Below are positions 1-30,917 of a DNA stretch of 64,000 nt, one piece after another (the first letter of the stretch is position 1; each line of letters opens with the position of its first letter). The stretch spans positions 1 to 64,000 of IMG/VR virus record IMGVR_UViG_3300022928_002150; one strand, 5' to 3'. The notes below the pieces were generated by a model. It did no database searches, was not told the origin of the DNA, and was given only the letters and a program-made list of their open reading frames with translations. Made by a program: the position numbers and the translations under genes. Source of the DNA: a virus.

Positions 1-15
1 AATCCATTTTATCCA

Positions 16-237
16 TTACCAATTTCCTTCCTTTAACCAATCCGCATCGTAGATGTGTCCAATCCAACCTCCATACATTTCTAGTACATCGTGGTCAGAA
101 CACCCTTCTGCTTCTTCAGCACCTAACTCTACTAACTCGTCTCTCAGCTCTTTCATAAACTTCTTGAGCTCTCGAAAATCAGGGTGAATAAACACTGCTT
201 CTTGCTGCTCTGGGTCAAATACTACATATAATTTCAT
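16..237 (-). CDS. hypothetical early protein (acidic, 73 aa)
   Basis: ORF with AAGGA RBS and its own sigma70-type promoter (263-292). Confidence 0.75.
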   Translation of the reverse strand: MKLYVVFDPEQQEAVFIHPDFRELKKFMKELRDELVELGAEEAEGCSDHDVLEMYGGWIGHIYDADWLKEGNW

Positions 238-262
238 GGCTTTTCCTTTTATTTATAAAGTT

Positions 263-292
263 ATTATACCACAATTTTGGTATTCTGGTCAA
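263..292 (-). promoter_or_regulatory. sigma70-type early promoter
   Basis: minus strand TTGACC-N18-TATAAT, preceded by an A-rich UP element. Confidence 0.65.
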
Positions 293-518
293 GAATTTTA
301 AACTTCTCACCCTCTTTAAATTCTGTTTTTTTGATTACTGCTTGGCCCAACACTGTAAAGTCTATGAAGTCAAAGGGTATAGACTTTATAGAGTGGTGTA
401 TGTCTTCTACTGTAGAGAAAGCTTTAGCTAAATTGATAGCTGTCTCAAAGTTAGAGTACGCACCTTTTATTGCACAGGTTTTGTCGTCTATCACACAAAA
501 GATCTTTTGCTTTGCCAC
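264..518 (-). CDS. hypothetical early protein (84 aa)
   Basis: GTG start with AGGAG RBS; consensus promoter at 547-575. Confidence 0.75.
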   Translation of the reverse strand: MAKQKIFCVIDDKTCAIKGAYSNFETAINLAKAFSTVEDIHHSIKSIPFDFIDFTVLGQAVIKKTEFKEGEKFKILDQNTKIVV

Positions 519-546
519 TTAATATACTCCTTTTTAATATGTGTAT

Positions 547-575
547 ATTATACTACCATTTGATTACGTTGTCAA
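547..575 (-). promoter_or_regulatory. strong sigma70 early promoter
   Basis: minus strand TTGACA-N17-TATAAT with an upstream A-tract. Confidence 0.8.
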
Positions 576-710
576 ATGTTTTTTCTTTTTTGTCAATAAG
601 CAACCGCAACCTAATTCCCGGGGGCCGCCCTCGACCATTGCGGGGTCAAGTTTTTTGTCAAATTTCGGCGCAAATAAATTTTTTTAAATTGTACCTAACC
701 CTACACGGGC

Positions 711-740
711 TTGACATTACCCCGCTAAAGCCTGTATAAT
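711..740 (+). promoter_or_regulatory. sigma70 promoter with no convincing downstream ORF
   Basis: TTGACA-N18-TATAAT. Confidence 0.65.
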
Positions 741-981
741 ATACCTAATGGGATTCCGTGCACACGGCGGCGATCCTGGGTTTGGCGGGTGTTTGGTAAG
801 ATAAAGCGGGGTTATCTCAAATTAAGTCCGATTTGCTGCATGGTACACTTTTACGTACATATAAGTGTATAAAAGTTACACTTTTACGTACGTAAATTTT
901 GCACTTCATTTTCGCACTTGCTTCGGCGCAGCCGAGACCTGCGCAAATTTAAACTAATTACAACACACCCGCAAAAAGTCC

Positions 982-1016
982 TTGACATCGCATCGATTTC
1001 CCACTATAATCGGCGC
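982..1016 (+). promoter_or_regulatory. sigma70 promoter with GC-rich discriminator, no convincing downstream ORF
   Basis: TTGACA-N17-TATAAT-CGGCGC. Confidence 0.7.
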
Positions 1017-1193
1017 GAGCAAATTTTCTACAAAATTTTCCGCAACTTTCCCCGAAGACTACCTTTTGATCCACCATACACGCACCCGCAAGGACGTAAC
1101 ACCAATCGGATTTGCACTTCGCTTTCGCACTGGCGCCCCCGCGCCAAAAATTTCAAGAAGTCAATGCTTTTTTCAAGAAATTTTTGGCGAGAG

Positions 1194-1209
1194 TGTTTCA
1201 CGTGAAACA
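1194..1209. promoter_or_regulatory. parS: parS centromere-like site (ParB binding)
   Basis: exact palindrome TGTTTCACGTGAAACA, intergenic. Confidence 0.85.
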
Positions 1210-1217
1210 TGCGCGAC

Positions 1218-1835
1218 CTATTCCAAATTTTCAAGTGTGGTATTGAGTGTTTCCAAAAGGGAATAGATGCCTTGCCGCTTGTCGTTGTAGTCGATCACAT
1301 GCCAATCAGAATCAATCACGCGCTCTTTTAATAGAGTCATGCGGTCATAGTATGAGAGCGCATTCTCGTCATTCTCGGAAAATTTCCAGTAGGTCAATGG
1401 CGATTTTTTTCTGCGCTCAATTCGTGCGCGTTGTTCATCCTCGGAAATTGAAAGCCAAAATTTAATCATGCGAACGCCTTGCGATTTTTCCCATGATTTA
1501 TGATTCGCTAGAAAATTCTTATATTGAGTTTCTGAGCACCAACCGTTTAAGCGTTGAACCATTGCGCGGCTATACCATGATCGATCATAAAAAACGATCT
1601 GGTTATATGCTGGCATTCTACGCGACCAATACGCAAGCCATTTTTTCATGGTGGACTTGCTAGGCTTGCGCGATAGATGCACAGAATAAAGCGCAGGATT
1701 CAGATAGTGCGTCACCTCGCGAATCGTCGAGGATTTTCCGGCAGTGTCGCGACCTTCGAGCACCACGCAGATTCTATCGAGCGCTAGATTTTCGAGATTG
1801 CGATTCAGTCGCGCCTGTTCTGTTTTTAATTTCAT
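1218..1835 (-). CDS. ppk2: polyphosphate kinase 2 (single domain)
   Basis: Walker A EGRDTAGKS, Walker B DRSWYSR, KFWLSISEDEQ and WKFS motifs. Confidence 0.92.
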   Translation of the reverse strand: MKLKTEQARLNRNLENLALDRICVVLEGRDTAGKSSTIREVTHYLNPALYSVHLSRKPSKSTMKKWLAYWSRRMPAYNQIVFYDRSWYSRAMVQRLNGWCSETQYKNFLANHKSWEKSQGVRMIKFWLSISEDEQRARIERRKKSPLTYWKFSENDENALSYYDRMTLLKERVIDSDWHVIDYNDKRQGIYSLLETLNTTLENLE

Positions 1836-1836
1836 A

Positions 1837-1947
1837 TTATACAGTCTCCAAAAGAAGCCAGATTATACCGCAAACGAGAATAAAATCAGCGCATAGCGAG
1901 TAAATTATATAAGCCTTGAAAGCTAAAGCGAGCAATTTGGTTTTCAT
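1837..1947 (-). CDS. small hydrophobic protein, 36 aa (MKTKLLALAFKAYIIYSLCADFILVCGIIWLLLETV)
   Basis: read manually; fills the gap between exonuclease and ppk2 with 1-nt spacers. Confidence 0.7.
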   Translation of the reverse strand: MKTKLLALAFKAYIIYSLCADFILVCGIIWLLLETV

Positions 1948-1948
1948 A

Positions 1949-2683
1949 TCATGCAACCTTTTTTGCAGTAAAATGATTTTTTGCTTGATAGTCGCGCCAG
2001 TTATAGCCAACGCAAGAATCTATGATGTCGGACATTTTACCGCGTTTTATGATTGCGTTCAATATAGGCAATTCGTAACCGATAATATCCTCTAACGCTG
2101 TATGTGGCTCGTCTGGCAAATCTTGACCCGTAACGAATCGCGCCATAACCTCGGCGTTGGTTTGGTAAGTCATATTGCCGAAAGCAGTAGGCGGATTAAA
2201 GTAATGATTTTGCATGATGAAATTTTTATATGCCGTAGAGGATGCCCATTTTACGCAGGCCGCTTGCCAGAGGCAGAAGCGCTGAGAAAAAATAGAGTGA
2301 TCTATTCCAGTATTTGACATTTTGCCAGAATCAAAGCCTAGATTGTAAGCGGTCAAGATTGGGTCGTATTTTCCGACCGCCCGCTCTAACCAGCGGTTAA
2401 TCGCGCCCACGCTTGCAATCATGCGCGAGCCATCCTGTACCATTTTTTGATATTTTGCATACCGTCGGTCTGCTGATTTGCGAGACCATAGCGCAGAAGG
2501 GCCAGCATCCTTATTAAAAAAGAGCGGGTGATTTTCTGCATCCGTGAAAATGCCGTCAACCATGACAGCGCATTGAGCGTGAATGCGCCCCTTGCGGTCT
2601 GTGATAGTGCAAGCAAAATCAGCGACCTTGTGATCTTGCGTTGTTTCAACATCGATTGTCGCTATATATTGTTTCTTGCTCAT
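1949..2683 (-). CDS. DEDDh 3'-5' exonuclease family protein
   Basis: IDVETT, AYNLGFD and HTALED (Exo I/II/III) motifs. Confidence 0.8.
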   Translation of the reverse strand: MSKKQYIATIDVETTQDHKVADFACTITDRKGRIHAQCAVMVDGIFTDAENHPLFFNKDAGPSALWSRKSADRRYAKYQKMVQDGSRMIASVGAINRWLERAVGKYDPILTAYNLGFDSGKMSNTGIDHSIFSQRFCLWQAACVKWASSTAYKNFIMQNHYFNPPTAFGNMTYQTNAEVMARFVTGQDLPDEPHTALEDIIGYELPILNAIIKRGKMSDIIDSCVGYNWRDYQAKNHFTAKKVA

Positions 2684-3150
2684 TATGCAGCTACCTTTTT
2701 TGCTTGGTTATATTTTACCGGATCGATTACACGAAAGCCAGCATTTTTTAAAGTTTGTTGCACGTCTGCGTTGTCATCCCAAAGGATAACGCGACGACGA
2801 ATTTCGTCGAACGAAACGCGGCGAGCAATCGCAAGCTCTGACATTTTGGCGAGCTTGAATTCACCAGCGGGTCGATTGTCATCGATTGAACGCGAAAGCG
2901 TAAACGCTGGCAGCATTCCGCGCATGCGTAGCCAAACGCGATCAACGCTACCCATGACGCGAGAAGTACAAATGCCAACGTCTAACCCTTCCGAGATGGC
3001 TTGAATCATTGTAGAAGCAAGCGGAAGCGTAGAGTCGCGCATGACGTTTGCGGGTGTATTCATTCTGCGCCAGTCGCTTAACGTCTCACCTTGACGGTGG
3101 GTCGAGTCGATGACAGTCTCGTCGAGATCAAATAAAAAAATTGGAAGCAT
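2683..3150 (-). CDS. HAD-superfamily phosphatase (possible functional analogue of T5 Dmp)
   Basis: FDLDET motif I, CTSR motif II, conserved K, WDD motif IV. Confidence 0.8.
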   Translation of the reverse strand: MLPIFLFDLDETVIDSTHRQGETLSDWRRMNTPANVMRDSTLPLASTMIQAISEGLDVGICTSRVMGSVDRVWLRMRGMLPAFTLSRSIDDNRPAGEFKLAKMSELAIARRVSFDEIRRRVILWDDNADVQQTLKNAGFRVIDPVKYNQAKKVAA

Positions 3151-3325
3151 AACCGATAATCCCTATTGTGTTTAATATAAGCAGATTGTAGCATTTTTTC
3201 TCGTATGCTTGCAAGCATAACAGAGCAAGTCCAATGATCGCCATGAGTTTACCCGCTGGCATGTCAATGAGGAAGGGAGCCGCGCCAAGCAGCGCGGTGC
3301 CTATCCAAGAGCAAACCGCAATCAC
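3128..3325 (-). CDS. small multi-pass membrane protein (65 aa)
   Basis: about three hydrophobic segments; overlaps both neighbours in the operon. Confidence 0.7.
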   Translation of the reverse strand: MIAVCSWIGTALLGAAPFLIDMPAGKLMAIIGLALLCLQAYEKKCYNLLILNTIGIIGYASNFFI

Positions 3326-3618
3326 GCGAGATGCTCTAAAACGCGGCTTAAGCCATCAACGGTGAGATTTTCGCGGTCACTCTCGGGTAATCCCAGAGAT
3401 CGCTCGATAGCACTCACAAGCTCGCGTTTAGTTGGGCCTTTTGGCCTTTTAGCCGCTGGAGCTTTAGCGATATAGTCAACGCCTTCGCTTTTGGCTTTGG
3501 CGATGATAGAGCGATAAGACACGGAACCGAATTCGTCGGCAAGCGCCTTTGCTTTGTCTAGGTCAAGGGGTGCAAGATCGCGCATTCGCTTAACCATTTT
3601 TTCAGTGTATGTAGCCAT
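3322..3618 (-). CDS. T5 A2-like pre-early DNA-binding protein
   Basis: SYRSIIAK...Y..K and TK.ELV..I patterns recall T5 A2; position in the terminal region. Confidence 0.65.
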   Translation of the reverse strand: MATYTEKMVKRMRDLAPLDLDKAKALADEFGSVSYRSIIAKAKSEGVDYIAKAPAAKRPKGPTKRELVSAIERSLGLPESDRENLTVDGLSRVLEHLA

Positions 3619-3659
3619 AACTTTTTTTCCTTAGTGATTAATGCTTTATTGCATGGGTA

Positions 3660-3703
3660 GGATTTTACAGAGGTATTCTGCAAATGTCCAGTATTTTTTA
3701 TAT
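3660..3703 (-). promoter_or_regulatory. pre-early promoter, copy 2
   Basis: minus strand TGGACA-N17-TAAAAT with A-tract; near-duplicate of 3868-3911. Confidence 0.7.
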
Positions 3704-3726
3704 CAAGATAGAATAACGATATTCCA

Positions 3727-3837
3727 TTATGGTATAAGGTTTAGCAAGAACGATCCTGCTATTGGCATCAGAATTGCTAAGGCAATTACCATGCCAATAA
3801 TTCCTAAGAGCGCTCTAGTGAATAAATCGTGAAACAT
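3727..3837 (-). CDS. small single-TM protein, 36 aa (MFHDLFTRALLGIIGMVIALAILMPIAGSFLLNLIP)
   Basis: read manually; AAGG RBS; directly downstream of promoter copy 1. Confidence 0.65.
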   Translation of the reverse strand: MFHDLFTRALLGIIGMVIALAILMPIAGSFLLNLIP

Positions 3838-3867
3838 TTTTTATACCTTTTGTTTTTATATGTGATG

Positions 3868-3911
3868 GATTTTACAGGGTCTAATTCCAAATGTACAGGG
3901 TTTTTTATATC
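3868..3911 (-). promoter_or_regulatory. pre-early promoter, copy 1
   Basis: minus strand TGTACA-N17-TAAAAT with A-tract. Confidence 0.7.
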
Positions 3912-3939
3912 GATGTGCTATAAGCTTATAACCAAATGT

Positions 3940-3957
3940 GCGTCAATAGTTTGACGC
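3940..3957. promoter_or_regulatory. GTCA-N6-TGAC inverted repeat (FleQ-box-like)
   Basis: GCGTCAATAGTTTGACGC. Confidence 0.5.
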
Positions 3958-3977
3958 GGGGCGTGCCCTAGCTCTTA

Positions 3978-3994
3978 AGCAGGAATCGTGCCAA
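3978..3994 (-). promoter_or_regulatory. sigma54 (-24/-12) promoter
   Basis: minus strand TTGGCACGATTCCTGCT vs consensus YTGGCACGNNNNTTGCW: one mismatch, GG-N10-GC intact. Confidence 0.75.
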
Positions 3995-4012
3995 CTTTAT
4001 TTTTCCCTTATA

Positions 4013-4025
4013 AATCAATAGGTTA
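4013..4025 (+). promoter_or_regulatory. IHF binding site
   Basis: AATCAATAGGTTA matches WATCAANNNNTTR, with a 5' A/T tract. Confidence 0.7.
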
Positions 4026-4059
4026 CGCGCGCCTGCCCAGGAGGGGGCGGTTAAGAGAC

Positions 4060-4075
4060 CGTCAAAATTTTGACG
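4060..4075. promoter_or_regulatory. perfect 16-bp palindrome, candidate bEBP enhancer (UAS)
   Basis: CGTCAAAATTTTGACG, about 100 bp upstream of the predicted sigma54 start. Confidence 0.55.
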
Positions 4076-4089
4076 CGCGCGGCCCCATC

Positions 4090-4185
4090 TTTACGTAAAA
4101 CTTTGTAAAAAACCGAAAAAACCCGAATCGGCGAAAAAACCTGAAAAAACCTCATAAAATTCGAACACGTCCGCAAAAATTTTTC
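4090..4185. repeat. phased A-tract repeats (AAAAAACC) near the putative genome end
   Basis: four AAAAAACC units plus further A-tracts at roughly helical spacing. Confidence 0.55.
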
Positions 4186-4244
4186 CTCTTAATTTTCTTC
4201 AGCATGTCTGAACCTTCCCTTTCCACCTTCCTACCTCACCTTCG

Positions 4245-4284
4245 AAAAATTTTTCTTGACATTCGATCTGCTCGAATGTATAAT
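4245..4284 (+). promoter_or_regulatory. late promoter for terS
   Basis: AAAAATTTTTC-TTGACA-N17-TATAAT. Confidence 0.8.
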
Positions 4285-4291
4285 TTATAGC

Positions 4292-4765
4292 ATGTCAAAA
4301 GAAGTTTCTATAATATCTCCCGAAGGAGTAGAAGTAGCTAATTGCTATCTCCAATACGGCAACATAAAGGCAGTTTGCGAATACATGTCTGTGCCAGAAC
4401 ATAGGGTAGTAGAAATTTTAAATACGCGTGAAGTAAAGCGTTATGTAGACACTGTGTATTTAGATATGGGGTACAGGAATAAAAATAATATTGCAGCTGT
4501 TCTTGACGAAATGATAGCATCAAAGCTAGAAGAGGCTCAAGAGAGCGGTATGTATACATCAAAGGATCTAGCGGATCTGATGGTCATGGCCCATAAAATG
4601 AGAATGGACGAAATTAAAGCGTTGGCAGAAGCTGAAAAGGCGTCCAATGCAGCCACTATTCGTAGTCAAACGAATGTACAGATTAATGAAGGTATTCCTT
4701 TTGGGCAAGGCAACTACGGTAAGTTGATGGAAAAATTATTAAATGGAGCTGGAGCAACAGAATAA
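4292..4765 (+). CDS. terS: terminase small subunit (T5-type)
   Basis: SPEG.EV...YLQ, EVK.Y....Y...GYRN, AHKMRM.E and QTNVQ motifs as in T5 TerS; start moved to ATG 4292 because TTG 4256 is the -35 box. Confidence 0.85.
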   Translation: MSKEVSIISPEGVEVANCYLQYGNIKAVCEYMSVPEHRVVEILNTREVKRYVDTVYLDMGYRNKNNIAAVLDEMIASKLEEAQESGMYTSKDLADLMVMAHKMRMDEIKALAEAEKASNAATIRSQTNVQINEGIPFGQGNYGKLMEKLLNGAGATE

Positions 4766-5033
4766 TCGCATAGATCGAATAGAGAACAAAATTGACAAAT
4801 TAACAGAACTAGTAGTAGCACTAGCAAGAGTAGAAGAGCAAATTTCAGACTTAGATGACGCAAGAGACAAAATTGAATCGAGAGTTACAGATATTGAAAT
4901 TATGCAAACGGTCGCACTTAGAGATATCGATAACCACGGCCATATTCTGCAAAGCATTACTAGACTGCTATGGATCGCCGTCACCGGCTTGATCACCTCA
5001 GGAATCGCAGCAACACTAGTAACTATTGGATAG
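4743..5033 (+). CDS. coiled-coil protein with C-terminal TM helix (XhlA/holin-like architecture)
   Basis: heptad pattern followed by LLWIAVTGLITSGIAATLVTIG. Confidence 0.6.
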   Translation: MELEQQNNRIDRIENKIDKLTELVVALARVEEQISDLDDARDKIESRVTDIEIMQTVALRDIDNHGHILQSITRLLWIAVTGLITSGIAATLVTIG

Positions 5034-5036
5034 AGA

Positions 5037-8000
5037 ATGGCTTTAGTACTACGACTTGTAAAAGGCACAGAACTTACTTTTACAGAGCTAGACGGAAACT
5101 TCACTTACTTAAATACAACTAAGTACGAAAGTGGAGATGACGCCCAATTTGGACAACTGAATTTTAGTACCCTCTCAGACGGTGTGCTACAGATTCTTGC
5201 GTTCACAAATGACCCGACTCTGAATTCTATAGACGGGTCAGTAATACTTCCTACTGAAGAAGCAGTAAAATCTTATGTTGCTTCTTATCACACTAATAAT
5301 CCTTATTCTTTTTCAGAACTCAATGACTCGAGCGGTGCTGGATTTCTCGGTGCCGTACTCATTCATGACGGCAGTAACTACGTTCCAAAAGCTCTTGAAA
5401 TCACAGACTTTTCAGATTTCGATGTTTCTACTGTTTCAGACGGATCTATTCTTGCATACGATGCTCAAACCTCTCTCTGGACCGCAACCTCTGCGGCAGC
5501 TTTAAGTTCCGTTTATTTAAATGATCTTGTAAATGTAAATGTTACAGGTGCCTCTGAAAATGATGTACTCGCTTTTGACGGGTCTTTTTGGGTAAGTACA
5601 AGTCCTGTTCTAGAAATAGAAAACTTAACAGATGTAAACTACCTCACAACTCCGAAGGCTGGCGAATCTTTAATATACGATGACGTTTTAGAACAGTGGA
5701 TTCCTGGAACACCAGCTACTGTCGGAAAACTAACTGTATCAGCCGCACTCAATACTAACATTACTGCAGGAAAGGCTGTTACAGTAGGTAGACAGAATAA
5801 CAGAACTGTAGTCTTTCCTATCTCTTATCTACCTCCTGAGTTTGGTCAATCAGAAACTGTTGGTAATCAGTTAGGCGCTCAAACTCATTCGCTATGGCTA
5901 AGCTCTCAGAAAAAATTTATTGTAGCATTTATTAATGCTACTACAGGTGCGGGCGAGTTTGTAATTGGAGAAGTAGATGATGATGGTGTAGAGATAACTA
6001 TGGACACCACTGTCCATGAGTTTGCTACCGGCGTCGGAGGAGAGTTCTCCGTTACGTATGATATAGCAACTACTCGAGTTATTTTTGCCTGGAAAGATAT
6101 TATTACCAATATTGGATATACTCGTGTAGTTACAATTGCAGGGTTTGCGGTAAGCATGTCGCAGTTTCCTATCGATTTTTCTTTGGGCGAGGCTATCGGC
6201 TCTCACTCCGTCTCTTCTGACACACAAAGCGGAAATTTAATTTTTCATTATGCGGATAACTCTTTAAACGGAGGAGGCGTAGGTATAGGTCGAGTAGGTG
6301 AAATAGATGGCTTAGACGTACTTTTTCAGCCGCCCACTGCTTTTACAACCAGGGAAGTTTACGACCTTCATACTGTTTATGCTCCTACAACTAATAGGCA
6401 CGTTACTGTATTTACTGACCAAATCAGTGAAGGCTACTCGATGGTCACTTTACTTACGGGGGTATTTGCAACTTATAGAACACCAAGAACATTTGATGAT
6501 GACTTAAGTTTTCCTTTTGTAACTATACTTCCAGACGGTAGCTCTTGCTGGGTTGCTTATAAAGATAATACGGTTAGTCCCCCTCGTGGAAAGGTCACAA
6601 GGTTTACTGCTAGCGCCACAGGTACTAGCACGGTAACAGACAACTCGTTGTACTCCAGATATTTCTTCGAAGATGGAACTGGCTCAGGGCCTACCCCGTA
6701 TAACATGTCAAATATTAGGCCTGCAGTCTTAGCATCCACTACAGATAGGGCGGCAGTTATTTTATGGGGGAGAGAGAACTCTGACACCAATGATATAGAA
6801 CTCTTTACAACAACTATTGCATATAGTGAATGGAGTGGCCGCCCCATTGTAGATATAGACGGAGCTGAGGCAGCTTCAGACGATACTTATGATTCTTTTA
6901 TAATAAATGGAAGCATACATCCCGCTTCTACTAGTGGGCTAACAGAAAGTAGAATGATAGTTCCGTTAGATTTAGCTACGGGAGTACGGGCTATAACCTA
7001 TGGGAACAATCCAGTAACTAATATTAAAGACTGGTTTGGTATCGCAGATGAAAGTTTTTCTAGTGGTTCAAGTGACTATAATTCTGGAATTATAACTATT
7101 TTAGGGGGCCAGACGAAGGTTACTAGTTGGATAGGTGGTTCACAGCCGAGTAATTTTGTTCCTGGTACTCCAATTTATATTGATAATTCAAGGTTATACC
7201 GAGGAAGTCTTCGCACCAGTGATGTAGGAAGCGGCGCCATTGGCATAAGTATAGATGCAAGCACCGTTCTTATTACCGGTGATGTCGAGCCAAATCCTAG
7301 CATAGCAGGTATACCCAAAAGCATAACAGAACTAGAGGATGTGGATACACTATCGACAGCTCCTCTTTCTCAACAATTTCTTCAATGGAATACCAATGCA
7401 CAAAAATGGGTTCCAGCCTATGCCTCAGTAACTGGTCAAATAAGTAATCTTGATGATGTCGATACTTATAACGGTTTTGAAGCTGGCATACCTAAAAGCC
7501 ACTTACTTGCTTGGGATAATTTTAACATAGAATGGGTTCCTAAATCAATAAATCAAATTTTAATTGATGAGCCTGTAGAGCTGGGAGAACTTAGTAATGT
7601 AAATTTTGTTCAAGTAAATGATGGAGATCTGCTCACATACAATGGTCCTACTCAGACTTGGATTTCATCCCCGGTAAATTTAGAAACCGATCTTGGAGAT
7701 ATAAATGATGTAGATTTAACAACCGGATTAGCTACAGGAACATATCTTCAGTATGATGGTGCTAATTGGGTTCCTGGCCAAGCCGTTTCAACTATGCCCA
7801 GGTTTAGAGATCTTGCAGATACCGGAGGCCAGTGGAGTGGCCAACAAGGTATGGTACCTATATTTAATACAACGGGTACCTATGCAAACCAGTTCACCTT
7901 AGGCTTTGTTAGTAATTTTGGCGGCATTGGAGACTTGTTTGATGTAGATACTTCTACTATTTCGCCCCAACCCGGTCAGTCTCTTGTTTGGAATGGAACT

Positions 8001-11000
8001 AAGTGGGCGCCTGCTACTATTACTGGTGGTGGAGGAGGAAGTACTGGCGGTGGCGATACTGGAGGGGGTACTACTACTACTCCTAGCCCAAACCCTGACG
8101 GGGGTGGAGGAAGTACTGGCGGAACCGTTGAAACGGAAGACGGGGATATAATAGAAATTCCCTCTTTAGACGTTGATGAAGATATAGAAGAACCTATCGA
8201 AACTGGAACTGGGTTTGTTTCTGAGACTGTTACTAATACTGATACTGTACCTGCAACGGATGTTATTCCTGAAAACGTAAAGCCGGGCGACTTATTTCAA
8301 ACACCCTCATTATCTAAGCCGTATCCTGTTGTATACAGCATATCTGAAGACAGGACAGAGCTCACTCTTTCTGAAAATATATCAACTAGTCAATTTGAGG
8401 CTATTATTTTTGCAACTCCTCCTGTCTACCAAGTAGTTGCAACTACTGGCACTGTAGAGGTTGGTCAGGGGGTTGTAGGTACTGAATCCACTAGTGAGAT
8501 CTTTCTTGATACTCCTTTGCCTGAAGAAATTGTTCCTGGTCACGCTGTTTACATAGGAAGCAATGTAAATATTCCTATTGTAAGTGGAATAAGTGGAGAC
8601 AGATTAAGCTTTGCTGTAAGTTATGATATAGATATAACTGCAGGCGCTACTATTATATTTAAAGTAGTAATTCCTATGGCAATCTCTCAGGATGTAGGAT
8701 CATTCGTAAATAACAATCCTGCAGGGACTACTGGTAGCAACACTATTGTACTGAACGACCCTGTGGGCCCAGATGTAGAAGTTAATCATTATGTAATGCA
8801 CTCGGAACTAGAGTCTGCTCCTAGAGTAGTATTTATATCTACAGACAGACTTAGCATTACTGTAAATAAAAATGTAGACGCTTTAGTAGACGGTCAATTT
8901 ATTACCTTTGGTAGTACTACTAGCAAGCAGCAAGAAGTAACGTTTACTCTAGCGGAACTATCAGATACAGATATTCAAACAGCTGCTTTGCAAGATGGAG
9001 AGGTTTTACTGTGGAACTATGAAAACCAAGTATGGACTACTAGTGACGTCCAACTATCTAATTCATTAGACGCATTAAATGATGTTCGTATCGACAACCC
9101 TCAAGAAGGTCAAATACTTAGATATACTACACTAGCTGATGCAAACAGATATGAAAATATAGATCCCAGTTTTGGAGCAGGCGCTCTAGCAGATTTTAAT
9201 TACAATATAGCGAATCAGGCATCGAACAATATTCTTACGTGGCACGCCCCTTCTTCCGCCTTTATCAGTACTCCTATAGGCGAGGTCATGAGAGCAAGTG
9301 ACTATACCATGAACAACCTTGCAGACGTTACTGGTGTGCCCTTTGATGGATCTGCTTTAGTATACGACAGTAACACAGGATTCTATAGCTCTGCGTCCTT
9401 CCCAGACAGCATATATGATTTAGCTGATGTCGCAGGTTTGCCAGAACCGTCTGATGCTCTTGTATGGAACGGCGCAAGCTGGAGCCCTGCGCCCATACCC
9501 AGGGCTTTAGAAGACCTAAACGAAAGATCTATTTTTCTATTAAACCAGCTAAACGAGAACGGTTTTCAAAATCTGGGAAATACACCTTCTTCTAAGTTTT
9601 TAAAATGGACGGGAACTACTATAGATACTGTAGTTACGGGCAGCATAGAAGGAATAGGACTTAGATTAGAAGATTTAGACGATGTTTCAATAACTGAACC
9701 CTACAATTCGGATTTTATTTCTTGGGATCCCGATACAAACTCATGGGTAACTAGAAGTGTAGAAGGTGCAGTAATTTCTATAGGTTTGGATGTTTTAACC
9801 GATGTAGATTTTCAGGCAGTGCCTCCACAAAACAGAAACACATTAGAGTATAACGCGTCTACAGGGGAGTGGAGACCTGCAACTCGCTCAGGTGTAGCCA
9901 ACTATATAGCCGCTGAAAACCTTTCAGCAGGTGACCTACTAGCTTTAAGATCAGACGGCGAAGTCGAAAAAATAGCAGAAATAGAAAGTAGTGTATCCAG
10001 CATCTTTCAAGCTTCAGGTAGCCCTTCAGTAAGTTCTGATTACTATGGTAAAAGTGTATTTGTATCTGATGACTATTATATTGTGGGAGCTCCAGGGTAT
10101 GAGTACTTAACTGTTGGGGGTAAGGTAGAAATATTCTCTACAAGTACTAACACCCTTGTACAAACTATAAACAACCCCAATGCAACTGCCAATGATAAAT
10201 TTGGAGAATCGGTATCAATTTCAAGCCAGTTTTTTACTATTGGGGCTCCAGGCTACGACTCTAATGCAGGCCGAATATATGTATATAGTTTACCAGGGTT
10301 CATACTAGAACATACTATCGACAACCCAAATGCAGCAACATCAACGTTAGACGACCAATTTGGCTTTAGAGTACAGAATACAAATACTTATGTAGCGGTT
10401 ACTGCAATTAATGAAGAGCCTCAATCCTTGTCAGATACTAACTCTGGCACAGTGTACGTATTTAACACTGCAACTGGAAATCAGTTAGGCTTTGTAGAAA
10501 ATCCCTCTCCCAGCATAACAGGGTTTGGTAGTGCTATATCAATATCTACTTCAGGCGATTTAGCTATTGGAAGCCCTAGCGAGGAAAAAGTATATGTCTA
10601 TGAGGCAGCTACTTTAAGCTCTATCTATACTATTTCTAACCCTGGCGGTGCAGGAGACTTCGGTAGCTCTATTGCAATTTCTTCTGACGGACGTATGGTG
10701 GTTGGTGCTCCTACTGCTGATACGGGCAGCGGAAAACTGTATATATACAATTTAAATAATGGCGATTTTAACTATACTCTTAACAACCCTAATAGAAACG
10801 CAGACGTACCCACAGGCGATAATTTTGGTAGTAGCGTTGCTGTAACAACTGAGTATATACTTGCTTCTGCCAGTGGAGAGAATGTAGGGAGTGTTTATTT
10901 GTTCGAGGCCGCCTCGGGAGCTTTTAGAAATGAATTTTTATCAGATGAAGGAGCAACAAATATAAATTGGGGATTTGGTCTAGCTCTTACGAACGACTAT

Positions 11001-14000
11001 CTTATTATTGGTTCGCCTAGACTAACCGTTGCAGGTACAGGTAAAATTGCAACTTTTGCTAGTGATTCGTTCATAGAAAGTAATGCTGGTGATTGGGTAG
11101 GAATATCAGAACAATCGGTAGAAGCTACTCAACAAGTAACTGTAACAACTGTAGGTGCCGTAAATAAGTTTGTATCCGGTCTGACTATTAATAAAAACTA
11201 TTATATAGACGGTAGAGGCTTTATAACTGAGACTGAGACAGATTACGGTGTGTTAGGAAAAGCTCTTGCTGCTGATGAGTTGCTTATTACAGGAAATGTA
11301 GTATCTGCTGAAACCGGAGTAACTTATATAAATGATATCCGTGATGTAGATACTGTAACTGTTCCTCCCTCTAACAATCAAGGCTTAGTATGGGATAGTG
11401 CTAATAATAGGTGGGCCCCTAAAAATATAGGATATAGTAATATCACTACTTTTGGTGGCTTAACAGATACAAGTGTTGGGGGAGTCCAAGCAGGCCAAGG
11501 TCTTAAATACAGTGGATCTTCATGGGGTCTTGCAACATATATTGAAGCTGGAACTCTATCTCTAAGTAGTCTATCAGATGTTGATACTTCCGGGGTTGTT
11601 GATAATGCCGCCTTAGTTTACAGTTTGCAATTTGATGAGTGGCAGGCAAGTGTTATACCGATCCCAGCAACAATAAACGATTTAAATGATATAGATCTTT
11701 CCACAGTATCTGCGGTTAATAATGATGTATTAGTTTATAATGCCAACAGCGAGCTGTGGGAGCCAGGTCAAGTTTCTAGAGTATCTGCGCTTGGGGACTT
11801 AATCGATGTAGATTTAGCTTCTCAGCCGCCTGTACAAGATAATGTTATTGCTTATCAAGCGGGCGTTGGCTGGACACCTGTTCAAATTACTAATATTACC
11901 GTAACGCAGTTAGATAACATGGATGATGTTAGAACTGCGGGACTTTATGCACCTGTTCCAGGAGAAACTTTAATTTGGAACGGTATTGAAGGCGTATGGG
12001 AGCCAGGCTCTCCAGCCTTAGACACTATTAGTATAGGATCTCTTTCAGACGTAGATACTACGCCCGGCACTGCAAGTGAGCCTAGTTTCGGAGAATTTTT
12101 AGCCTGGGACGGAGTTAATTGGTCTCCTGGCTCAACAGCACCTACTGCTGCAACTCTTAATAGTTTGCTAGATGTAGAGGTAATTGCAAACCCAGCAAAA
12201 GAAAAGGAAGTACTTACTTATGATGCTACTACCCAGAAGTGGTACCCTAGAGCAGGGCACTCGGGTGGTATAGAAAACTTCATAGCAAATGGAGATATTA
12301 GTGATGGAGATATAGTTTCTATTACCCCTCCTGGAAAAGTTAAAAAGACAGGTCAAGAGCCCTTTTTACCTGCTTGGAATGTAGAAAACCCTACTATATT
12401 TGGTACGGCTACCAGTGATCAATTTACTAGTGCAGTTGTTGCATCAGGAGATTATATTATTGCTGGTGCTCAATATGAGGACGAGATAGAAGGAAGTAGT
12501 TCTGGGGTTGTATACGTATTTAATAATTTTGGTACTCAACAGTATTATATTAAAAATGAAAATATAAATAATCCTGTAACAGGGGACCGATTTGGTAATT
12601 CTTTAGACGCTAGCGGTAACCTTCTAGCGGTAGGATCTCTTCTTGCTGATGATCTAACAGGGTATAATCAAGGAGCAGCTTATGTCTACCGCTTGGCTAC
12701 AGGAACATCCCCTAGTGGAGACTTATGGCTATCAATACAAAATCCTGATGGTACAAACAACGCGCAGTTTGGCACTGACGTAGCTATAAGCGATTATAAT
12801 GGTGAGGCTCGTTTAGCCGTCGGCGCACCACTAGAAGATATGAGTGACCAATACTCAGAAGCTGGATGCGTATACTTTTTCGATCCTGACATAGGTGTAG
12901 GAGACCCTCAATATGGGTTTTTATACCGTATTGATAATCCTAATACAGTCGGTAGTATATCAGGGGATTACTTTGGCCAAAGAGTGTCTCTTACTCAAGA
13001 TAGAAAATACTTAGCTGTTACTGCGTCCAGAGAAGGTACAACTAGCGTAAAGGGATATGTCTATATATATGACGTAAGCAGTGACTCTCTTCCCGTTTTA
13101 TTACATACTATATCAAATCCAAATCCGGGTGGAGGTTCAGATGCAACGCATGGGTTTGATATAGTATGGGATAGAAATCCATCAATTAAAAGATTAGCTA
13201 TATCTGCACCAGAGCAGGATTTTACGGGTGCTAATGAAGGTCTTGTTTATATATATGATGTAACCGATGAAGCTTGTACTCTTATAAATACTATTCAAAA
13301 CCCTGATACTTATCCTCTTCCGCAGGGAGATGAGTTCGGCTACTCCATCGATATGAAAGATAACAAAATACTAGTAGGTGCAAGAAGAGAAGATCAGGGG
13401 TACATAGGAGGAGTATATACTAATGCTGGTAAGGCTTATTATTTCGAAGCCGATACCGGTACTCCTATTGCATATTTTGACAATCCTAATATATATGGGA
13501 ATAGTACAACTGAGTACTTTGGTTCAAGTGTTGCTATTGGTAATGATAAATTATACGTAGGTGCTCCTTTTGCTAGGAATACTATTTCAGGTGACTTTAA
13601 CTCTGGACACCTTACAGCTTTTGATATTAATATAACTAGTAATGCTTCATCTTGGATAGGAGTAGCTTTTGAAGATATTTTAGATGGAGATGTAGGACAA
13701 GTAACCCTGTTTGGTGGTATAGCACACAATCAAGTTAATCTATTGCCGGGACAGAATTATTATTTAAATATTGATGGTACTCTTAACAGTTCTCCCACAA
13801 ATTTAGGTATTTTTGGTAAAGCTTTAAGTGCAAACGACATTTTAATAACAGGGGACGTTGAATCTAATACTGCTGACCAAGTAAATAATTTAAATGATCT
13901 TGGAGATGTTACTGCATTTGCTTCAGACGGCCAGGCGCTTGTTTGGAACGCACAAAGCTCTCAATGGGTAGCAGGAGATGCGGCTGGGGGTGTTAGTAGC

Positions 14001-17000
14001 TTATCGGATTTAGATGATATAAATTTACCTATACCTTCAAATATTCAAACAGGGGAGGTTTTAACTTGGAACGCGGTATCTCAGTCTTTTGTTAATGCTG
14101 TAACTGGTTCAAGTAACGTAGACGTATTAGATGATTTAACAGACGTAGATCTTAGTAGTGTTTTACCTTCAGCTTTGCAGATATTGCAATATAATGGCTC
14201 AATATGGTCTCCTCAAGACTTACCCGAGGGACAGCGTATTACTGGTATTGCAGCGGAGCAAATATTACAAGGCGGCTTAGTAGTACTAAATAGTTCTGGT
14301 CAGTTTGAAAATCCCACAATAACTGCAGGGGAGCTGGTATCTTCTTTCCCATCTAGCTCAGATTTGGGACTTTTTGGGCATACAATTGCAGAAGAAGGCG
14401 GCCGTGTCGCAGTTTCAGCACCTTATCATAGAATTGGCCCCAACAGCGGAGTCGCAACCGGCCTAGTAAGGATTTATGATACAGATAACTCTACTTTAAT
14501 ACGTACATTACAACCCTCCCTAAGCCTCACAACGCCCGCGGCTTGGCGAGGAGAAACTAATCAGGCGTTTGGATTTGCAGTAGCAATAAAAGATGATTAT
14601 GCAGTTGTAGGCTCTCCTCTTAAGGATTTAGATGCGGTTAATTCTGGCGTTGTATACGTATATAGAATAAGCTCAGGTACTTTAATAGCAGTTCTAGAAA
14701 GCCCTGAGCCTCTTCTCCAAGGGCAGTTCGGTTCCTCAGTAGCTATTAACTCAACCTATGTAGCAGTGGGCGCACCACGAGTAGATATAGGGAATAATGC
14801 ATTAGTAGGTAAAGTATATAGATATCCTATCTCGTTATTAGAGTCATCAGAGTATGGAATACCAGAAGGAGAAACAGAAGCAAGATGGGATCCTCTTTTA
14901 GTTCCTGATTTTACATTCAACAATAATAATGATGATGGAGGCACTGGAGGAGACCTGTTTGGGTCTGCACTGAGCGCAACAGATACTTACTTGTCTATTG
15001 GAGCTCCTGGGGAGGATACTGGAGGACAGCTATCAACCGGTAGAATATACGTTCGTAATATTAATACTGGGTCTACTATACACACTCTGCAGGATACTAA
15101 TATAGGATCTAACGGACTAGGTTTTACCTTCGAAATGGATGATTCTATCATAGTTGCAGGAACCCCAGACTTTAATGGAGGTTTGGGAAGGGTATTGGTA
15201 TATTCTACAACCTCGGGTGCAGTGCTTGCAGAAATAAACAGTCCAGATCAGATAGGAGATAAATTCGGTAGGTCAGTAGGGCTGGGATCGAGTCAAATCG
15301 TTGTAGGTTCAGAAGCAAATAATGACGTATTAGGTTACAATGACTCAGGAAAGTTTTATAGCTATAATAGAGCATCCACTACTTCGTACCCCCTATATGC
15401 GGCATTTGAAAACCCGGGTTATGTTGTCAACCCTTCCGGAAGTTTATTTGGATTTTCTGTAGCGGTAACAAATTCTGGTCGTGCTATTGTTGGTGCTCCG
15501 TATAATGATAATGTTCAGGGAACTCAACAGTTCCCCGCAACAGATAGAGGGGTATTCTTTATATACGATGTAACACTGCAAGCTACACAATCAAATGCAG
15601 CAGACTGGATGGGCATTGCAGAACAGACAGCAGTTACAGGAGAACAACTAGAAGTGGTAATTCTAGGAGGAAAAACTTCTAGTATTTACTCTAATTTAGT
15701 TCCTGGAGAATATTACTATGCTGGGGCTGACGGAAGTCTAACCCTTGAAGAAACTTCTTACGGAATAGTAGGTCCTGCAGCAAGTGTTTCTGAAATATTA
15801 ATACTTGGAAGTATTTCAGGCGTATCTGATATGGCTGACTTAGCTGATGTTGATTTTTCTGCGGGATTAGTTCCCCAACATGGATTAACTTGGAACGGTC
15901 AAAAGTGGGTAGCAAGCTATGTATCAACAGTAACTAATTTACTAGATCTTGAAGATGTAAATTTACTAGACTCTCCTCCAGAAGATGCACAAGGCTTAGT
16001 TTATGATAACAACACGTCTAAATGGGTTCCTGCTAATATAGGCTACTCTAATGTAGCTCAGTTTAGTGATCTTAATAATGTAGATGTTAGTAATGCTACA
16101 GTAGGCCAAAGCATTGAATGGAACGGAGTAAATTGGATTCCTACTACGTTTTCTTCTGTTAATAGTATAAATGATTTAACGGATGTAAACACTACTACTC
16201 TTAAAGTTGATTACGATATACTTACTTGGAGCGAGTCTGCAGATGAGTGGATAATAGACAAACGTAATTTTGGCAATTTTTTAAACCTAGAGGCTTATGC
16301 TCCAACACAACCAATACAAGCTGGAGATCCTGTTTATATTACGGACGATGGTAAAGTTGCTGCAATCAAAGGCACGGAGACTGTTCTAGGCACAGAAAGC
16401 CTAGTAAATACTTTATATCCTCCTGTATCGAATTCTAATTTTGGAACTAATTTAGCGGTTAGTAAAGATATTATAGTTGTAGGTAACCCGTATTTTACCA
16501 GCGGAAATATTCTGAGTACAGGTAGAGCATACATCTATAATGCTACTAGTGGGCAGCTTCTATATACTTTGGAGCCTCCTACTGATTATTCATTACAAAG
16601 TTTTGGCTGGGGAGTAGCTACAAATGGCAGCGAAGTAGCTATTACTGCTAAAGAGTCTCCCTCTAATAATGATTACGGGCGTATTTATTTATACGATGCT
16701 TATACAGGAGCTTTATTAAGACAAATAGTAAACCCAGAAGACTCTGTATCTACGAATGGCCCTTTTGCTCAGCATAATTCAGTAGTAATGACGTCATCTT
16801 ATTTAATTGTAGGTAACTCTAATTGGAGAGATGCTACGTTAGGAACTACTCCGGGTAAGGCATACGTATTTAATATATTTACAGGCACTCAGGAGTATAG
16901 TTTTAATAACCCAAATCCTTCTAATGGAGCAGATTTTGGTCGATATATTAATATAGATGAAAGTGAAAGTATCATTTCAATAACAGATACAGGCACTGGA

Positions 17001-28522: not shown

Positions 28523-28891
28523 ATGGCAACTAGACGACAGACCGTTGCAACTTTAACTAAGCTACGAGATCATATTGTACAATTCGGAGTAAAAGCTCCG
28601 ATATCTTATGAAGAGTATATTAAGTTAAAGCCTACCAATCCTATTACTAAAAGGGAGCTTGGCCGTGTATTTAACGGTAGATGGGCTAGGGTATTAACAG
28701 CCCTGATCAGGAAGTTCCCTACAGTATATGATGACGCTGCAAAAGCTCATGCAAAGCCTGTAATTCAGCCTAAGGCAGAACCTAAGGTAGAGCCTGAAGC
28801 AGCGCCTAAATCAGCACCAAGGAAGCCGGTAACAAAACCTGCTCCTAAGCGGTTCGCTGCTAAGAAGGAGGATGTTAAAAACGATGAATAA
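28523..28891 (+). CDS. hypothetical protein with P/A/K-rich tail
   Basis: lies between portal and protease. Confidence 0.7.
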   Translation: MATRRQTVATLTKLRDHIVQFGVKAPISYEEYIKLKPTNPITKRELGRVFNGRWARVLTALIRKFPTVYDDAAKAHAKPVIQPKAEPKVEPEAAPKSAPRKPVTKPAPKRFAAKKEDVKNDE

Positions 28892-30917
28892 AATTTTTAG
28901 TTTTACATCTACATTTAAAGCGTTAAATGAAGATGATGATGGGATTCACATTTGCGGAATGGCAAGCACTAATGATGCTGATCGTGCAAATGACATAATT
29001 GACGTGGAGGCCTGGACAAAGGGAGGCCTTGCTAATTTTGAAAAGAACCCTATAATTTTATTTAATCACGACTACAATAAACCGATCGGACGAGCTACTG
29101 GGCTTAAAGTTACAGACAATGGTTTGGAACTTAAAGCGAAGATAAGTAAGTCTGCTCCTGATAGTGTAGGTACGTTGATTAAAGAAGGCATTCTTGGAGC
29201 TTTTTCTGTTGGTTTCCGGGTCAAGGATGCGGATTACTTAGAGGAAACTGATGGATTAAAGATTAAGGACGCTGAGTTGTTCGAGGTATCAGTTGTATCT
29301 GTACCTTGCAATCAGGCAGCTACTTTTTCGCTAGCTAAATCTTTCGACTCAGAAGCTGAGTACGAAGATTTTAAAAAAACTTTTTTAAAAAATAGTGTGG
29401 ATCTAGCCGGTCAGTCTCTGGCTAAAGACGAAGTCAATACTTCTAGCGTAGCTAGTGACACACCGGAAACCGCGCAAAGCGCACAAAAGGAGATAGAAAT
29501 GTCTGATGTTAAAAATTCAGAAATTGACTTAGAAGCTTTTGCTAAAAAGGTAGCGGAAGAAACCGCTGCCAAAATCGCAATGAAGCAAGCCGAAGTCAAA
29601 GCTGCAGATGAAAAAGCAGCACTCGAACAACAAGAAAAAGCCTCTCAGGAAGCTGAAGAAAAAGCCGCTCAGGAAGCTGAAGTCAAGTCTGCTATTGTTA
29701 CTGGTGTTCAATCAGGAACTGAAAAGTTGATGGCTGATTTCGAAGAGAAGATGTCTGCATCTAATGCTGACCAGGCTGAAGTTATTGCTAAGTTCCAAAA
29801 AGAACTTACCGAAAAAGAAGAAGAAATCACTAAAATGCGCATGTCTAAAGGGCTTTTCGCTGATCGTGGTTCTGAACAGTCACTTGAAAAGCATGCTAAA
29901 GAACTTATGCACGCGCATCTTGCTGGTGTAATTACTGGTAAAGGTTGGAACACTGACTATGCTAAGTCTGTTTTCGAAAAAGCTGGTGTTACTTACACGG
30001 CTACAGGGGGTCAAAACGATCCCGGTATCGACGTTGTAGTATCTCGCGAAATTGAGAAAGAAATTCAATTAGAGCTTCGCACCGCAGCTTTATTTAAAGA
30101 AATGCCAGTAGAGAGTCAATCTACTGTATTGCCTCTGCAGTCTGATACCAATCTGGCTAAGTGGGCAAATGCACGCGACAGTGCTAACGATGGTACTGGT
30201 AGTGATATTGCTAACCGTGGCAATTCTGACAATACTTATGATGTTGGCCAGAAGGTTGTACAGGTTGATCGTCTTATTTCAACTTCTTTCCTCGATAACT
30301 ACATCGATGAGAAAGTTTTGATTAATATCATGCCTATGCTGACTGCTGGTATTGCACGTTCACATGCCCGAGCTGTTGATGCTGCTATTATTAATGGTAA
30401 CTCTGCAAATATTACAGGTTTGATTGGCCATGCAACTGCTGGTGCTGAATGGGGAGCTCAGGTTGCTGCTAACCTTACGTTTAGTGCTGATGTACTTGTT
30501 AAGTGTCGTCGTAATATGGGCGTATACGGCCTTAACCCACAGGACGTTGTATTTATCGTATCACAAGATAAGTACTATGACCTTTTAGAAGATCCCGACT
30601 TCCAGACTGTTGATGAAGTTGGTTCAGATATGGCAGTACGTTTGACTGGTCAGGTTGGTCGTGTATACGGTTCTCCTGTAGTTCTTACGGACAATATGCC
30701 TGCTGACGCTGAAGATGGATTTGGTGGAGCTTTGTGTGTCAACACTTCAAACTTCATTATTCCTCGTCTCCGTGGAATTACTGTTGAGCAGGACTACGAA
30801 GTAGCTGCACAACGCCGCGTATTAGTTGCTACTCAGCATATGGGCTTTGATGAGCTCTTTGCTGGTGCTGGTGGTAAGTCTGCTGCTACTCACGCAGTAT
30901 ACAATGCCTTAGCATAA
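28872..30917 (+). CDS. prohead protease fused in frame to scaffold + major capsid protein (start 28872 or 28884)
   Basis: NPIILFNHD, FSVGF and L.EVSVVSVPCN protease motifs; coiled coil; HK97-fold capsid C-terminal part; internal RBS/ATG at 29499. Confidence 0.92.
   Translation: MLKTMNKIFSFTSTFKALNEDDDGIHICGMASTNDADRANDIIDVEAWTKGGLANFEKNPIILFNHDYNKPIGRATGLKVTDNGLELKAKISKSAPDSVGTLIKEGILGAFSVGFRVKDADYLEETDGLKIKDAELFEVSVVSVPCNQAATFSLAKSFDSEAEYEDFKKTFLKNSVDLAGQSLAKDEVNTSSVASDTPETAQSAQKEIEMSDVKNSEIDLEAFAKKVAEETAAKIAMKQAEVKAADEKAALEQQEKASQEAEEKAAQEAEVKSAIVTGVQSGTEKLMADFEEKMSASNADQAEVIAKFQKELTEKEEEITKMRMSKGLFADRGSEQSLEKHAKELMHAHLAGVITGKGWNTDYAKSVFEKAGVTYTATGGQNDPGIDVVVSREIEKEIQLELRTAALFKEMPVESQSTVLPLQSDTNLAKWANARDSANDGTGSDIANRGNSDNTYDVGQKVVQVDRLISTSFLDNYIDEKVLINIMPMLTAGIARSHARAVDAAIINGNSANITGLIGHATAGAEWGAQVAANLTFSADVLVKCRRNMGVYGLNPQDVVFIVSQDKYYDLLEDPDFQTVDEVGSDMAVRLTGQVGRVYGSPVVLTDNMPADAEDGFGGALCVNTSNFIIPRLRGITVEQDYEVAAQRRVLVATQHMGFDELFAGAGGKSAATHAVYNALA

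Follow-up and report, generated by a model that had tools for sequence, protein, structure and literature searches.

A probable miniature T5-type terminal repeat carrying parS and a PPK2 gene in an uncultured marine phage

We analysed the first 64,000 nucleotides (nt) of the 95,808-bp IMG/VR record IMGVR_UViG_3300022928_002150, whose completeness is estimated at 98%; bases 1-64000 of the record are referred to here as the window. An earlier prediction made from the DNA letters alone (the original prediction) had placed at 590-4200 the terminal repeat of a T5-like phage without the T5 A1 gene, far shorter than the repeat of T5 and built as a landing pad for host machinery. Our analysis indicates that window positions ~623-4086 are probably a short direct terminal repeat of 3,464 bp, collapsed during assembly, and the counterpart of the first-step-transfer (pre-early) region of T5. 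The predicted repeat stands with redrawn boundaries, which are homologous to the annotated terminal-repeat ends of T5 and the T5-like phage My1, strongly so on the side next to the small terminase gene, terS, and weakly at the far side, and its predicted length of ~3.46 kb is indeed far below the 10.2 kb of the T5 repeat.

By its sequence, the phage is an uncultured marine siphovirus distantly related to the T5 group. Its TerL is 47-49% identical, across 97-99% of the length, to those of T5-like phages of Vibrio and Pectobacterium (My1) in the Demerecviridae (tblastn), in line with the affiliation originally proposed, and no cultured phage showed a DNA-level match to window 1-5000. The sequence originates from salt-marsh metagenomes, where it is present in 24 runs. 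The record's ends share an overlap of 184 bp (window 1-184 and genome 95625-95808) with one mismatch (C/T, position 127), so the assembly is circular or collapsed and position 1 is arbitrary; the T at position 127 is the variant in three of the four salt-marsh runs compared.

Ends and conservation of the predicted repeat

The terS-proximal end is marked by a non-coding element at 4043-4105 (+), GGGGGCGGTTAAGAGAC-N26-CATCTTTACGTAAAAC, which is kept in at least 27 relatives, where it spans ~70 nt with the form GGGGCGGTTAnnAGAC ... CCCC-CACGTAC-ACTTT and lies on the opposite side of the gene cassette from parS. An nhmmer profile of this terminus element was built from 27 marine relatives only. 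The T5 record (NC_005859) annotates repeats at 1-10219 and 111532-121750 and the My1 record (NC_018837) a left repeat at 1-12854; the marine profile matches the right-repeat junction of T5 with an E-value of 8.3e-5, spanning the annotated boundary at 111532, and nt 43-13 of My1, within the annotated left repeat, with an E-value of 8e-6. When the first 43 nt of T5 are read in the direction of the genome end, they comprise GGGGGTGGCGGTTAGCAGAC and then 28 further nt, and at the right-repeat junction the sequence continues as CACCTTCATGTG, while the My1 terminus sequence, GGGCGGTAATGAGACTTATTCTCATTTAGC, is almost identical to that of several marine relatives. The genome end follows the AGAC of the signature GGCGGT(T/A)A-NN-AGAC after 28 nt in T5 and 27 nt in My1. 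D342, a cultured Vibrio phage, carries the element too (E 3.5e-7), in the interval that separates the end of its A2-A1-Dmp operon from terS, and T5, D342 and the window share its orientation, with the GGCGGTTA side toward the pre-early genes and the CACGTA side toward terS. From this homology, the repeat is predicted to end at ~4086, ~27 nt after GGGGCGGTTAAGAGAC, and to extend leftward. Contigs from the natural population break at 4051-4080, inside the element.

The possibility that the terminus element acts as a structured RNA was rejected, as RNAalifold on 27 relatives returned -0.09 kcal/mol and no compensatory pairs, and we therefore read 4043-4105 as a DNA site; folded as single-stranded DNA, the terminus blocks do not outperform shuffled sequences. 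Two more copies of the GGGCGGTTAT core lie in T5 at 10396-10424, ~180-200 bp outside the right end of the left repeat and on the same strand as the left-terminus copy, and these may be terminase-binding repeats that flank both cut sites.

The far end is predicted with low confidence at ~623 (+/-5), in a block at 613-649 (-) in which an orphan -35 element, TTGACC (649->644), precedes GGCCCCCGGGAATT (630->613). This left block is kept in 26 distinct relatives in the form CTTGACA-N~20-GGCCCCCCGGAATT, and in T5 and My1 alike the repeat reaches its far end 20-22 nt past GGGGGCAAAA-N3/4-TTGACA; the top T5 match of a left-block profile, at 10162-10198, is weak (nhmmer, E 0.77). The idea that the left and right blocks are inverted repeats of each other was judged unconvincing by eye.

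The co-occurrence analysis that had been proposed along with the repeat was carried out on related IMG/VR loci. There are 499 terS relatives in the database, and among the 80 that were fetched, a cassette upstream of terS is present in a minority only and varies in gene content. A relative of the polyphosphate kinase 2 (PPK2) gene described below occurs in 41 loci, most of which share the gene order p98, p65, Dmp, optional exonuclease, PPK2. Downstream of the last cassette gene, a palindrome of the parS type is present in 30 of 42 PPK2 loci, against 0 of 79 loci without PPK2, and among the 12 misses are several whose flank is too short or that have a variant with three mismatches. The terminus element is present in 39 of 41 loci with Dmp, the homologue of a phosphatase encoded in the T5 repeat, and in 9 of 80 loci without it. 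The boundary blocks lie 2.3-3.6 kb apart in 22 relatives, and in all 17 of 17 PPK2-positive relatives parS lies 370-571 nt from the far block. The distribution of parS, PPK2, Dmp and the boundary elements departs from independent assortment, and we consider them to be one module of 2.3-3.6 kb. No description of the tight linkage between parS and PPK2 was found in the literature searched.

The operon, its control region and the distal tract

The genes within the predicted repeat form a leftward operon, most of which had been correctly called from the letters alone. At its downstream end lies a single-domain PPK2 (1218-1835, -), identified by Pfam PF03976 (E 5.7e-42, 144 bits against a cut-off of 22.3), the nearest solved structures in the PDB being 3czp (5e-42) and the class I enzymes 5llb and 3czq (1e-27 to 1e-31). 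The gene at 1949-2683 (-) encodes p244, a 244-residue protein assigned as a DnaQ-like DEDDh 3'-5' exonuclease because residues D11, E13, D118, H194 and D199 are invariant across 16 homologues and its AlphaFold model, which has the predicted RNase H-like fold and a pLDDT confidence score of 89, matches DnaQ, TREX1, RNase T and Orn with a Foldseek probability of 1.0. In contigs from four salt-marsh runs, joints from 1930/1947 to 2682/2708 excise the exonuclease gene precisely, and these exact joints across 1947-2708 make the gene a presence/absence polymorphism in the sampled population; it is also missing from several relatives. The 155-residue HAD phosphatase at 2683-3150 (-) belongs to the family of T5 Dmp, the deoxynucleoside-5'-monophosphatase encoded in the T5 repeat (BLASTP 1e-10), and phrog_415 holds both proteins. 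The membrane peptides of the original prediction correspond to three small hydrophobic products, all on the minus strand: a 65-residue protein, p65 (3128-3325), kept in relatives, and two 36-residue peptides (3727-3837 and 1837-1947), for which a membrane location is predicted from sequence. By analogy with Dmp in T5, the operon probably serves early manipulation of nucleotide and phosphate pools.

The one gene call that fell below threshold is the 'A2-like' protein. This protein, p98 (3322-3618, -; 98 residues), occupies the position of A2 in T5 and has a predicted N-terminal three-helix bundle resembling a helix-turn-helix, but BLASTP against T5 A2 was not significant and hhalign gave a probability of 8% with T5 A2 and 3% with the phage's own A2-family protein, both comparisons aligning the same ~60 residues of p98. 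Foldseek returned weak matches of p98 to three-helix homeodomain and GcrA-like folds, all with E >1. No similarity was found between p244 and T5 A1 or Dmp, nor between p65 and T5.005. The A2-family gene of this phage lies outside the repeat, 23 kb away at genome 72716-73192 (-; phrog_1725, E 2e-29), amid ligase, helicase and regulator genes, and is preceded by a perfect consensus promoter; a second, weak A2-family match lies at genome 92916-93299 (-). The predicted loss of A1 is borne out in the whole genome and in 121 related loci, where A1 of T5 and of D342 gave no tblastn match; phrog_1745, to which T5 A1 belongs, was not found in the 98%-complete genome either, in a search whose control also found nothing.

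Upstream of the operon, a sigma54-type -24/-12 motif, TGGCACGATTCCTGC, lies at 3993-3978 (-) and is oriented into the operon (consensus TGGCACG-N4-TTGCW). Across the 1.28 Mb of family loci, the strict form TGGCAYG-N4-YTGC has 41 matches where 3.7 would be expected (~11-fold), and the spacing is specific, with 35 unique matches at the correct spacing and 0-5 at other spacings; loose matches with up to two mismatches are not enriched in the window (30 against 23.8 expected). The matches include two classes, one upstream of the operon and pointing into it, as in the window and six relatives, and one that adjoins parS and points antisense into the operon end. The sigma54-type motif is real, and its function as a promoter, which would require the host sigma54 holoenzyme to bind it, is predicted from sequence; genes for sigma54 and for its activators, the bacterial enhancer-binding proteins (bEBPs), were found nowhere in the phage. 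Three relatives (loci L031 at 3669-3701, L058 at 3212-3272 and L103 at 7202-7464) carry two to four such motifs that are inverted and partly overlapping, an arrangement that could represent either promoters or a palindromic protein-binding site. Of the bEBP, integration host factor (IHF) and sigma54 sites originally called here, only the last is upheld: the single match to the IHF consensus (4013-4025) is at chance level, and the candidate bEBP sites amount to two GTCAA-N4-TTGAC dyads. The twin sigma70 promoters called in the same region are present at 3690-3662 (TGGACA-N17-TAAAAT) and 3897-3869 (TGTACA-N17-TAAAAT), both on the minus strand and each inside one of two copies of a 59-nt direct repeat (3646-3911, -) that flank the 36-residue peptide gene at 3727-3837.

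At the other end of the operon, 8 nt beyond the PPK2 stop codon and ~570 nt from the predicted far end, lies parS, TGTTTCACGTGAAACA (1194-1209), an exact match to the 16-bp palindrome TGTTNCACGTGAAACA that is the chromosomal consensus. This site, which had been correctly predicted, has no second copy in the 95.8-kb genome (with up to two mismatches allowed, shuffles give an expectation of 0.05), and its variants in relatives, TGTTCCACGTGGAACA and TGTTCCACGTGAAACA, carry changes that preserve the symmetry of the palindrome. A ParB_N gene was not found in the phage, and loading of host ParB at this site would be the most economical reading. The site is adjoined by an AT-rich inverted repeat with 18-nt arms (1142-1189), kept in relatives, that folds as single-stranded DNA with a z-score of -3.8.

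The remainder of the untranslated tract at 623-1217 holds the repeats and counter-oriented promoters that the original prediction had listed. Two perfect sigma70 promoters, TTGACA-N17/18-TATAAT with GC-rich discriminators, lie at 711-740 and 982-1010 (both +) with no gene downstream of them; they face parS and the 3' end of the operon and belong to a tandem array of promoters and hairpins. In relatives such arrays comprise 2-5 tandem consensus promoters in uniform orientation, all aimed back at parS. Perfect consensus promoters number four in the first 4.3 kb, compared with 11 genome-wide. Direct repeats lie at 844 and 877 (18 nt) and at 898 and 1111 (24 nt), a hairpin, GGCGCCCCCGCGCC, at 1133-1146, and units of repeats and hairpins like those at 844-1146 are present in L015 and other relatives. 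No DnaA box (TTWTNCACA) was found in window 1-5700. Host RNA polymerase at the promoters at 711 and 982 may produce short antisense or non-coding RNAs, form roadblocks or activate an origin. At parS, the possible roles include pausing or anchoring of the DNA, protection, silencing of the operon jointly with the convergent promoters and segregation as in phage phi29.

The region is flanked by early genes on one side and the structural arm on the other. Immediately beyond the far end of the predicted repeat, at 547-575 (-), stands a perfect consensus sigma70 promoter for the adjacent early genes, which run leftward; its equivalent is kept in relatives. Phased A-tracts, which had been counted as part of the terminal repeat, are present at 4107-4151 and fall outside the predicted 623-4086. 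Beyond them lie a consensus promoter (TTGACA-N17-TATAAT, 4256-4284, +) and terS itself (4292-4765, +; phrog_3802), both likewise outside the repeat, and an A-rich upstream tract with the terS promoter directly precedes terS in essentially all of the 80 relatives, even where coding sequence abuts. The structural arm runs rightward in the order terS, a 4647-residue FG-GAP protein, TerL, portal, protease/capsid protein, tail tube, a protein of tape-measure size and fibres. The 4647-residue open reading frame (ORF), immediately after terS at 5037-18980 (+), contains FG-GAP repeats (Pfam E 3.6e-83) and puts 20 kb between terS and TerL. A 681-residue ORF at 28872-30917 (+), with matches to phrog_80 (head maturation protease) as well as to phrog_617 (major head protein), may be a fused protease-capsid gene. 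The leftward arms encode RNR, SbcC, helicases, PhoH and a ligase. No RNA genes were found in 1-5200 (Rfam) and no tRNAs in the window (ARAGORN).

Contig depth, alternative readings and a possible entry scheme

Sequencing depth over the region was examined on Logan contigs, rather than reads, of four salt-marsh runs with mixed strains. In all four, long contigs at the base depth of the genome halt at 1144-1169 and restart at 4051, and the stretch in between is covered by numerous short contigs, those identical to the window having 1.4-6 times the depth of the flanks. This pattern is compatible with a doubled segment and equally with a module shared by co-occurring lineages, and in contig data of this sort neither a stretch without cover nor a non-integer depth counts for or against a repeat. 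Several observations weigh against a terminal repeat. The excess depth differs from run to run, at about 2.3-fold, 1.5-2.5-fold, 1.4-2.4-fold and 3.5-6-fold, with some segments below twofold, and the contigs in excess carry many variants, exonuclease deletions and loose ends that match the flanks of other lineages, so strain sharing accounts for at least part of the excess. The mean depth of the contig covering 1-1144 equals that of the unique right flank in two runs, ~10% below what a doubling of 623-1144 would give. No physical duplication was seen in these contigs, and 590-4200 occurs as a single copy in the 95,808-bp record. The homology at the far end is weak, and in the marine family the GGGCAAAA..TTGACA motif of that end occurs in ordinary promoter settings as well. 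The operon is inverted relative to those of T5 and D342, and, with A1 absent and the A2-family gene 23 kb away, two-step transfer of the T5 type cannot be assumed.

An alternative reading is a hypervariable accessory ('moron') cassette between divergent early and structural arms, in which the conserved flanking blocks would be regulatory or recombination sites for swapping between co-occurring lineages and the excess depth would reflect sharing. The cassette is found in a minority of terS relatives with variable gene content, the population contigs are broken up precisely over 1145-4050, where variants, deletions of p244 and foreign loose ends occur, and the depth ratios are non-integer and depend on the run. 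Cassettes that shuffle promoters and stem-loops exist in T4-type phages, and the promoter-plus-hairpin units of the distal tract appear to resemble them. However, such a cassette would leave unexplained the homology of the right block to the T5 and My1 termini, including the shared 27-28 nt offset and the matching orientation toward terS. Moreover, a phage with a T5-like TerL is expected to have a long direct repeat in its genome, and the sole Dmp homologue sits here; we regard this alternative as possible but doubtful. The tract at 623-1217 could also be a module for replication origin and partition, a reading compatible with a terminal repeat, in which the promoters prime or activate unwinding at the AT-rich palindrome, in the manner of phage origins activated by transcription, and parS recruits host ParB, ParA and SMC to organise or segregate genomes, for example in a carrier state. 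Promoters without genes that aim at an AT-rich palindrome beside parS, an arrangement kept in relatives, would fit such a module, and in bacterial chromosomes parS likewise lies near origins. A phage precedent is phi29, which segregates its genome into spores via host Spo0J and parS (PMC2731898). Yet window 1-5700 lacks DnaA boxes, usual iterons and an adjacent initiator gene are absent, no lysogeny or plasmid-maintenance genes were seen among the genes annotated here, and the origins of T5 map to the middle of the genome (10.1101/866236, section 3.3.3), which together make this reading quite improbable. Finally, parS, the sigma54 box and the IHF site could be chance or non-functional look-alikes in an early operon with ordinary promoters, as the chance-level IHF match and the loose sigma54 matches would allow. 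The exact parS with symmetric variants at the same position and its distribution among PPK2 loci, together with the enrichment of the strict sigma54 motif at the correct spacing, largely refute this for both elements; it stands for the IHF and bEBP sites only, and as an account of the whole we give it hardly any weight.

The T5-type repeat is the reading that we favour. In T5, the end bearing the terminus signature enters the cell first (10.1101/866236), and by homology the ~4086 end would be the first to enter here. Entry, if it proceeds as in T5, would then deliver the terminus element, the sigma54-type motif with the twin promoters, the operon, parS, the palindrome, the promoter array and the far block, in that order. 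With its exonuclease, 5'-nucleotidase and polyphosphate-driven nucleotide kinase, the operon would retool the nucleotide and phosphate pools of the host in the first minutes of infection. The distal tract at 623-1217 would occupy the position of the T5 injection stop, with parS, an AT-rich palindrome and consensus promoters firing back toward the operon, and no DnaA boxes. Host-protein sites in the T5 stop region are not a new idea, as Davison proposed that host DnaA binds there, from the conserved DnaA boxes (10.1101/866236).

A more detailed scheme, which we consider unlikely as a whole, would have these DnaA boxes swapped for parS, with host ParB-CTP clamps that load on the incoming repeat pausing, anchoring or protecting the DNA, or silencing the operon together with the convergent array, while a sigma54-type promoter gates pre-early expression on a host activator and PPK2 makes nucleoside triphosphates from host polyphosphate. 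That host ParB/SMC, sigma54 or IHF replaces A1, that PPK2 fuels DNA entry, and that entry takes two steps at all, is speculation. If true, the A1-less 3.5-kb repeat would be a minimal, host-dependent version of T5 first-step transfer.

How T5 halts and then resumes DNA injection is a decades-old problem, and its conserved non-coding stop region still has no assigned function. The marine family may be a natural experiment on it, with the same terminus signature and Dmp, one-third of the repeat size, no A1, and parS instead of DnaA boxes, and it names candidate host partners, namely ParB, the sigma54 holoenzyme and RNA polymerase. Should GGCGGT(T/A)A-NN-AGAC followed by 27-28 nt hold in more mapped phages, it would locate the repeats of uncultured T5-like phages on collapsed metagenomic assemblies. 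In the literature searched, the coverage of which is incomplete, we found the phi29 precedent and the DnaA-box model of Davison and no description of this combination; judged from sequence, what appears to be new here is a miniature A1-less T5-type repeat, parS in the stop region, sigma54-type motifs in the control region and PPK2 linked to parS.

Comparison with known systems

The predicted repeat resembles those of T5 and other Demerecviridae in its company, a T5-like TerL and, in the circular map, a location next to the structural arm on its terS side, and in its left-terminus signature with the 27-28 nt offset, shared with T5 and My1. Shared with the T5 repeat, too, are a Dmp-family gene, small proteins of the membrane, a small helix-rich protein in the place of A2, and a distal untranslated tract that carries conserved repeats and palindromes. 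Non-coding blocks of T5-like repeats are conserved while the ORF content varies (10.1101/866236, section 3.3), and here too they are better conserved than the ORFs. It differs from T5 and My1 in size, ~3.5 kb instead of 10-13 kb, and in lacking A1 and a demonstrable A2 within the repeat. Unlike in T5, the operon runs in the inverse direction with respect to the terminus and additionally encodes PPK2 and a DEDDh exonuclease, and parS, sigma54-type motifs and a tandem consensus sigma70 array take the place of DnaA boxes.

Cultured T5-like phages of Vibrio, such as D342 (OZ195993.1), provide the nearest cultured relatives of both TerL and Dmp, and D342 likewise places the terminus element between its pre-early operon and terS. 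The pre-early non-coding DNA of D342 at 2900-3670 holds three strict sigma54-type motifs (~0.03 expected) beside three consensus DnaA boxes. Unlike the window, D342 keeps A2-A1-Dmp in the order and orientation of T5 and retains DnaA boxes, and no parS was found at up to two mismatches in the 10.5 kb examined.

The early promoters A1-A2-A3 of T7 lie at the leading end of the genome, point inward, transcribe the early genes and pull the DNA in. The promoter array at 711-1010 is similar to this cluster in that strong promoters for host RNA polymerase stand in tandem in a terminal region of a genome with direct terminal repeats, in our case predicted ones. Unlike the T7 cluster, the array has no downstream gene and, by homology with T5, would face the entering end, antisense to the operon.

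The closest parallel for parS is phi29, a virulent Bacillus phage with five host-type parS (Spo0J) sites that serve to trap the genome in spores (PMC2731898, citing Meijer et al. 2005). Both would be lytic phages that bear host chromosome-partition sites without a ParB of their own. The present phage differs from phi29 with its five sites in having one site, at a fixed position that ends the operon predicted to enter first, linked to PPK2, and in a T5-like marine phage that is probably one of Gram-negative hosts.

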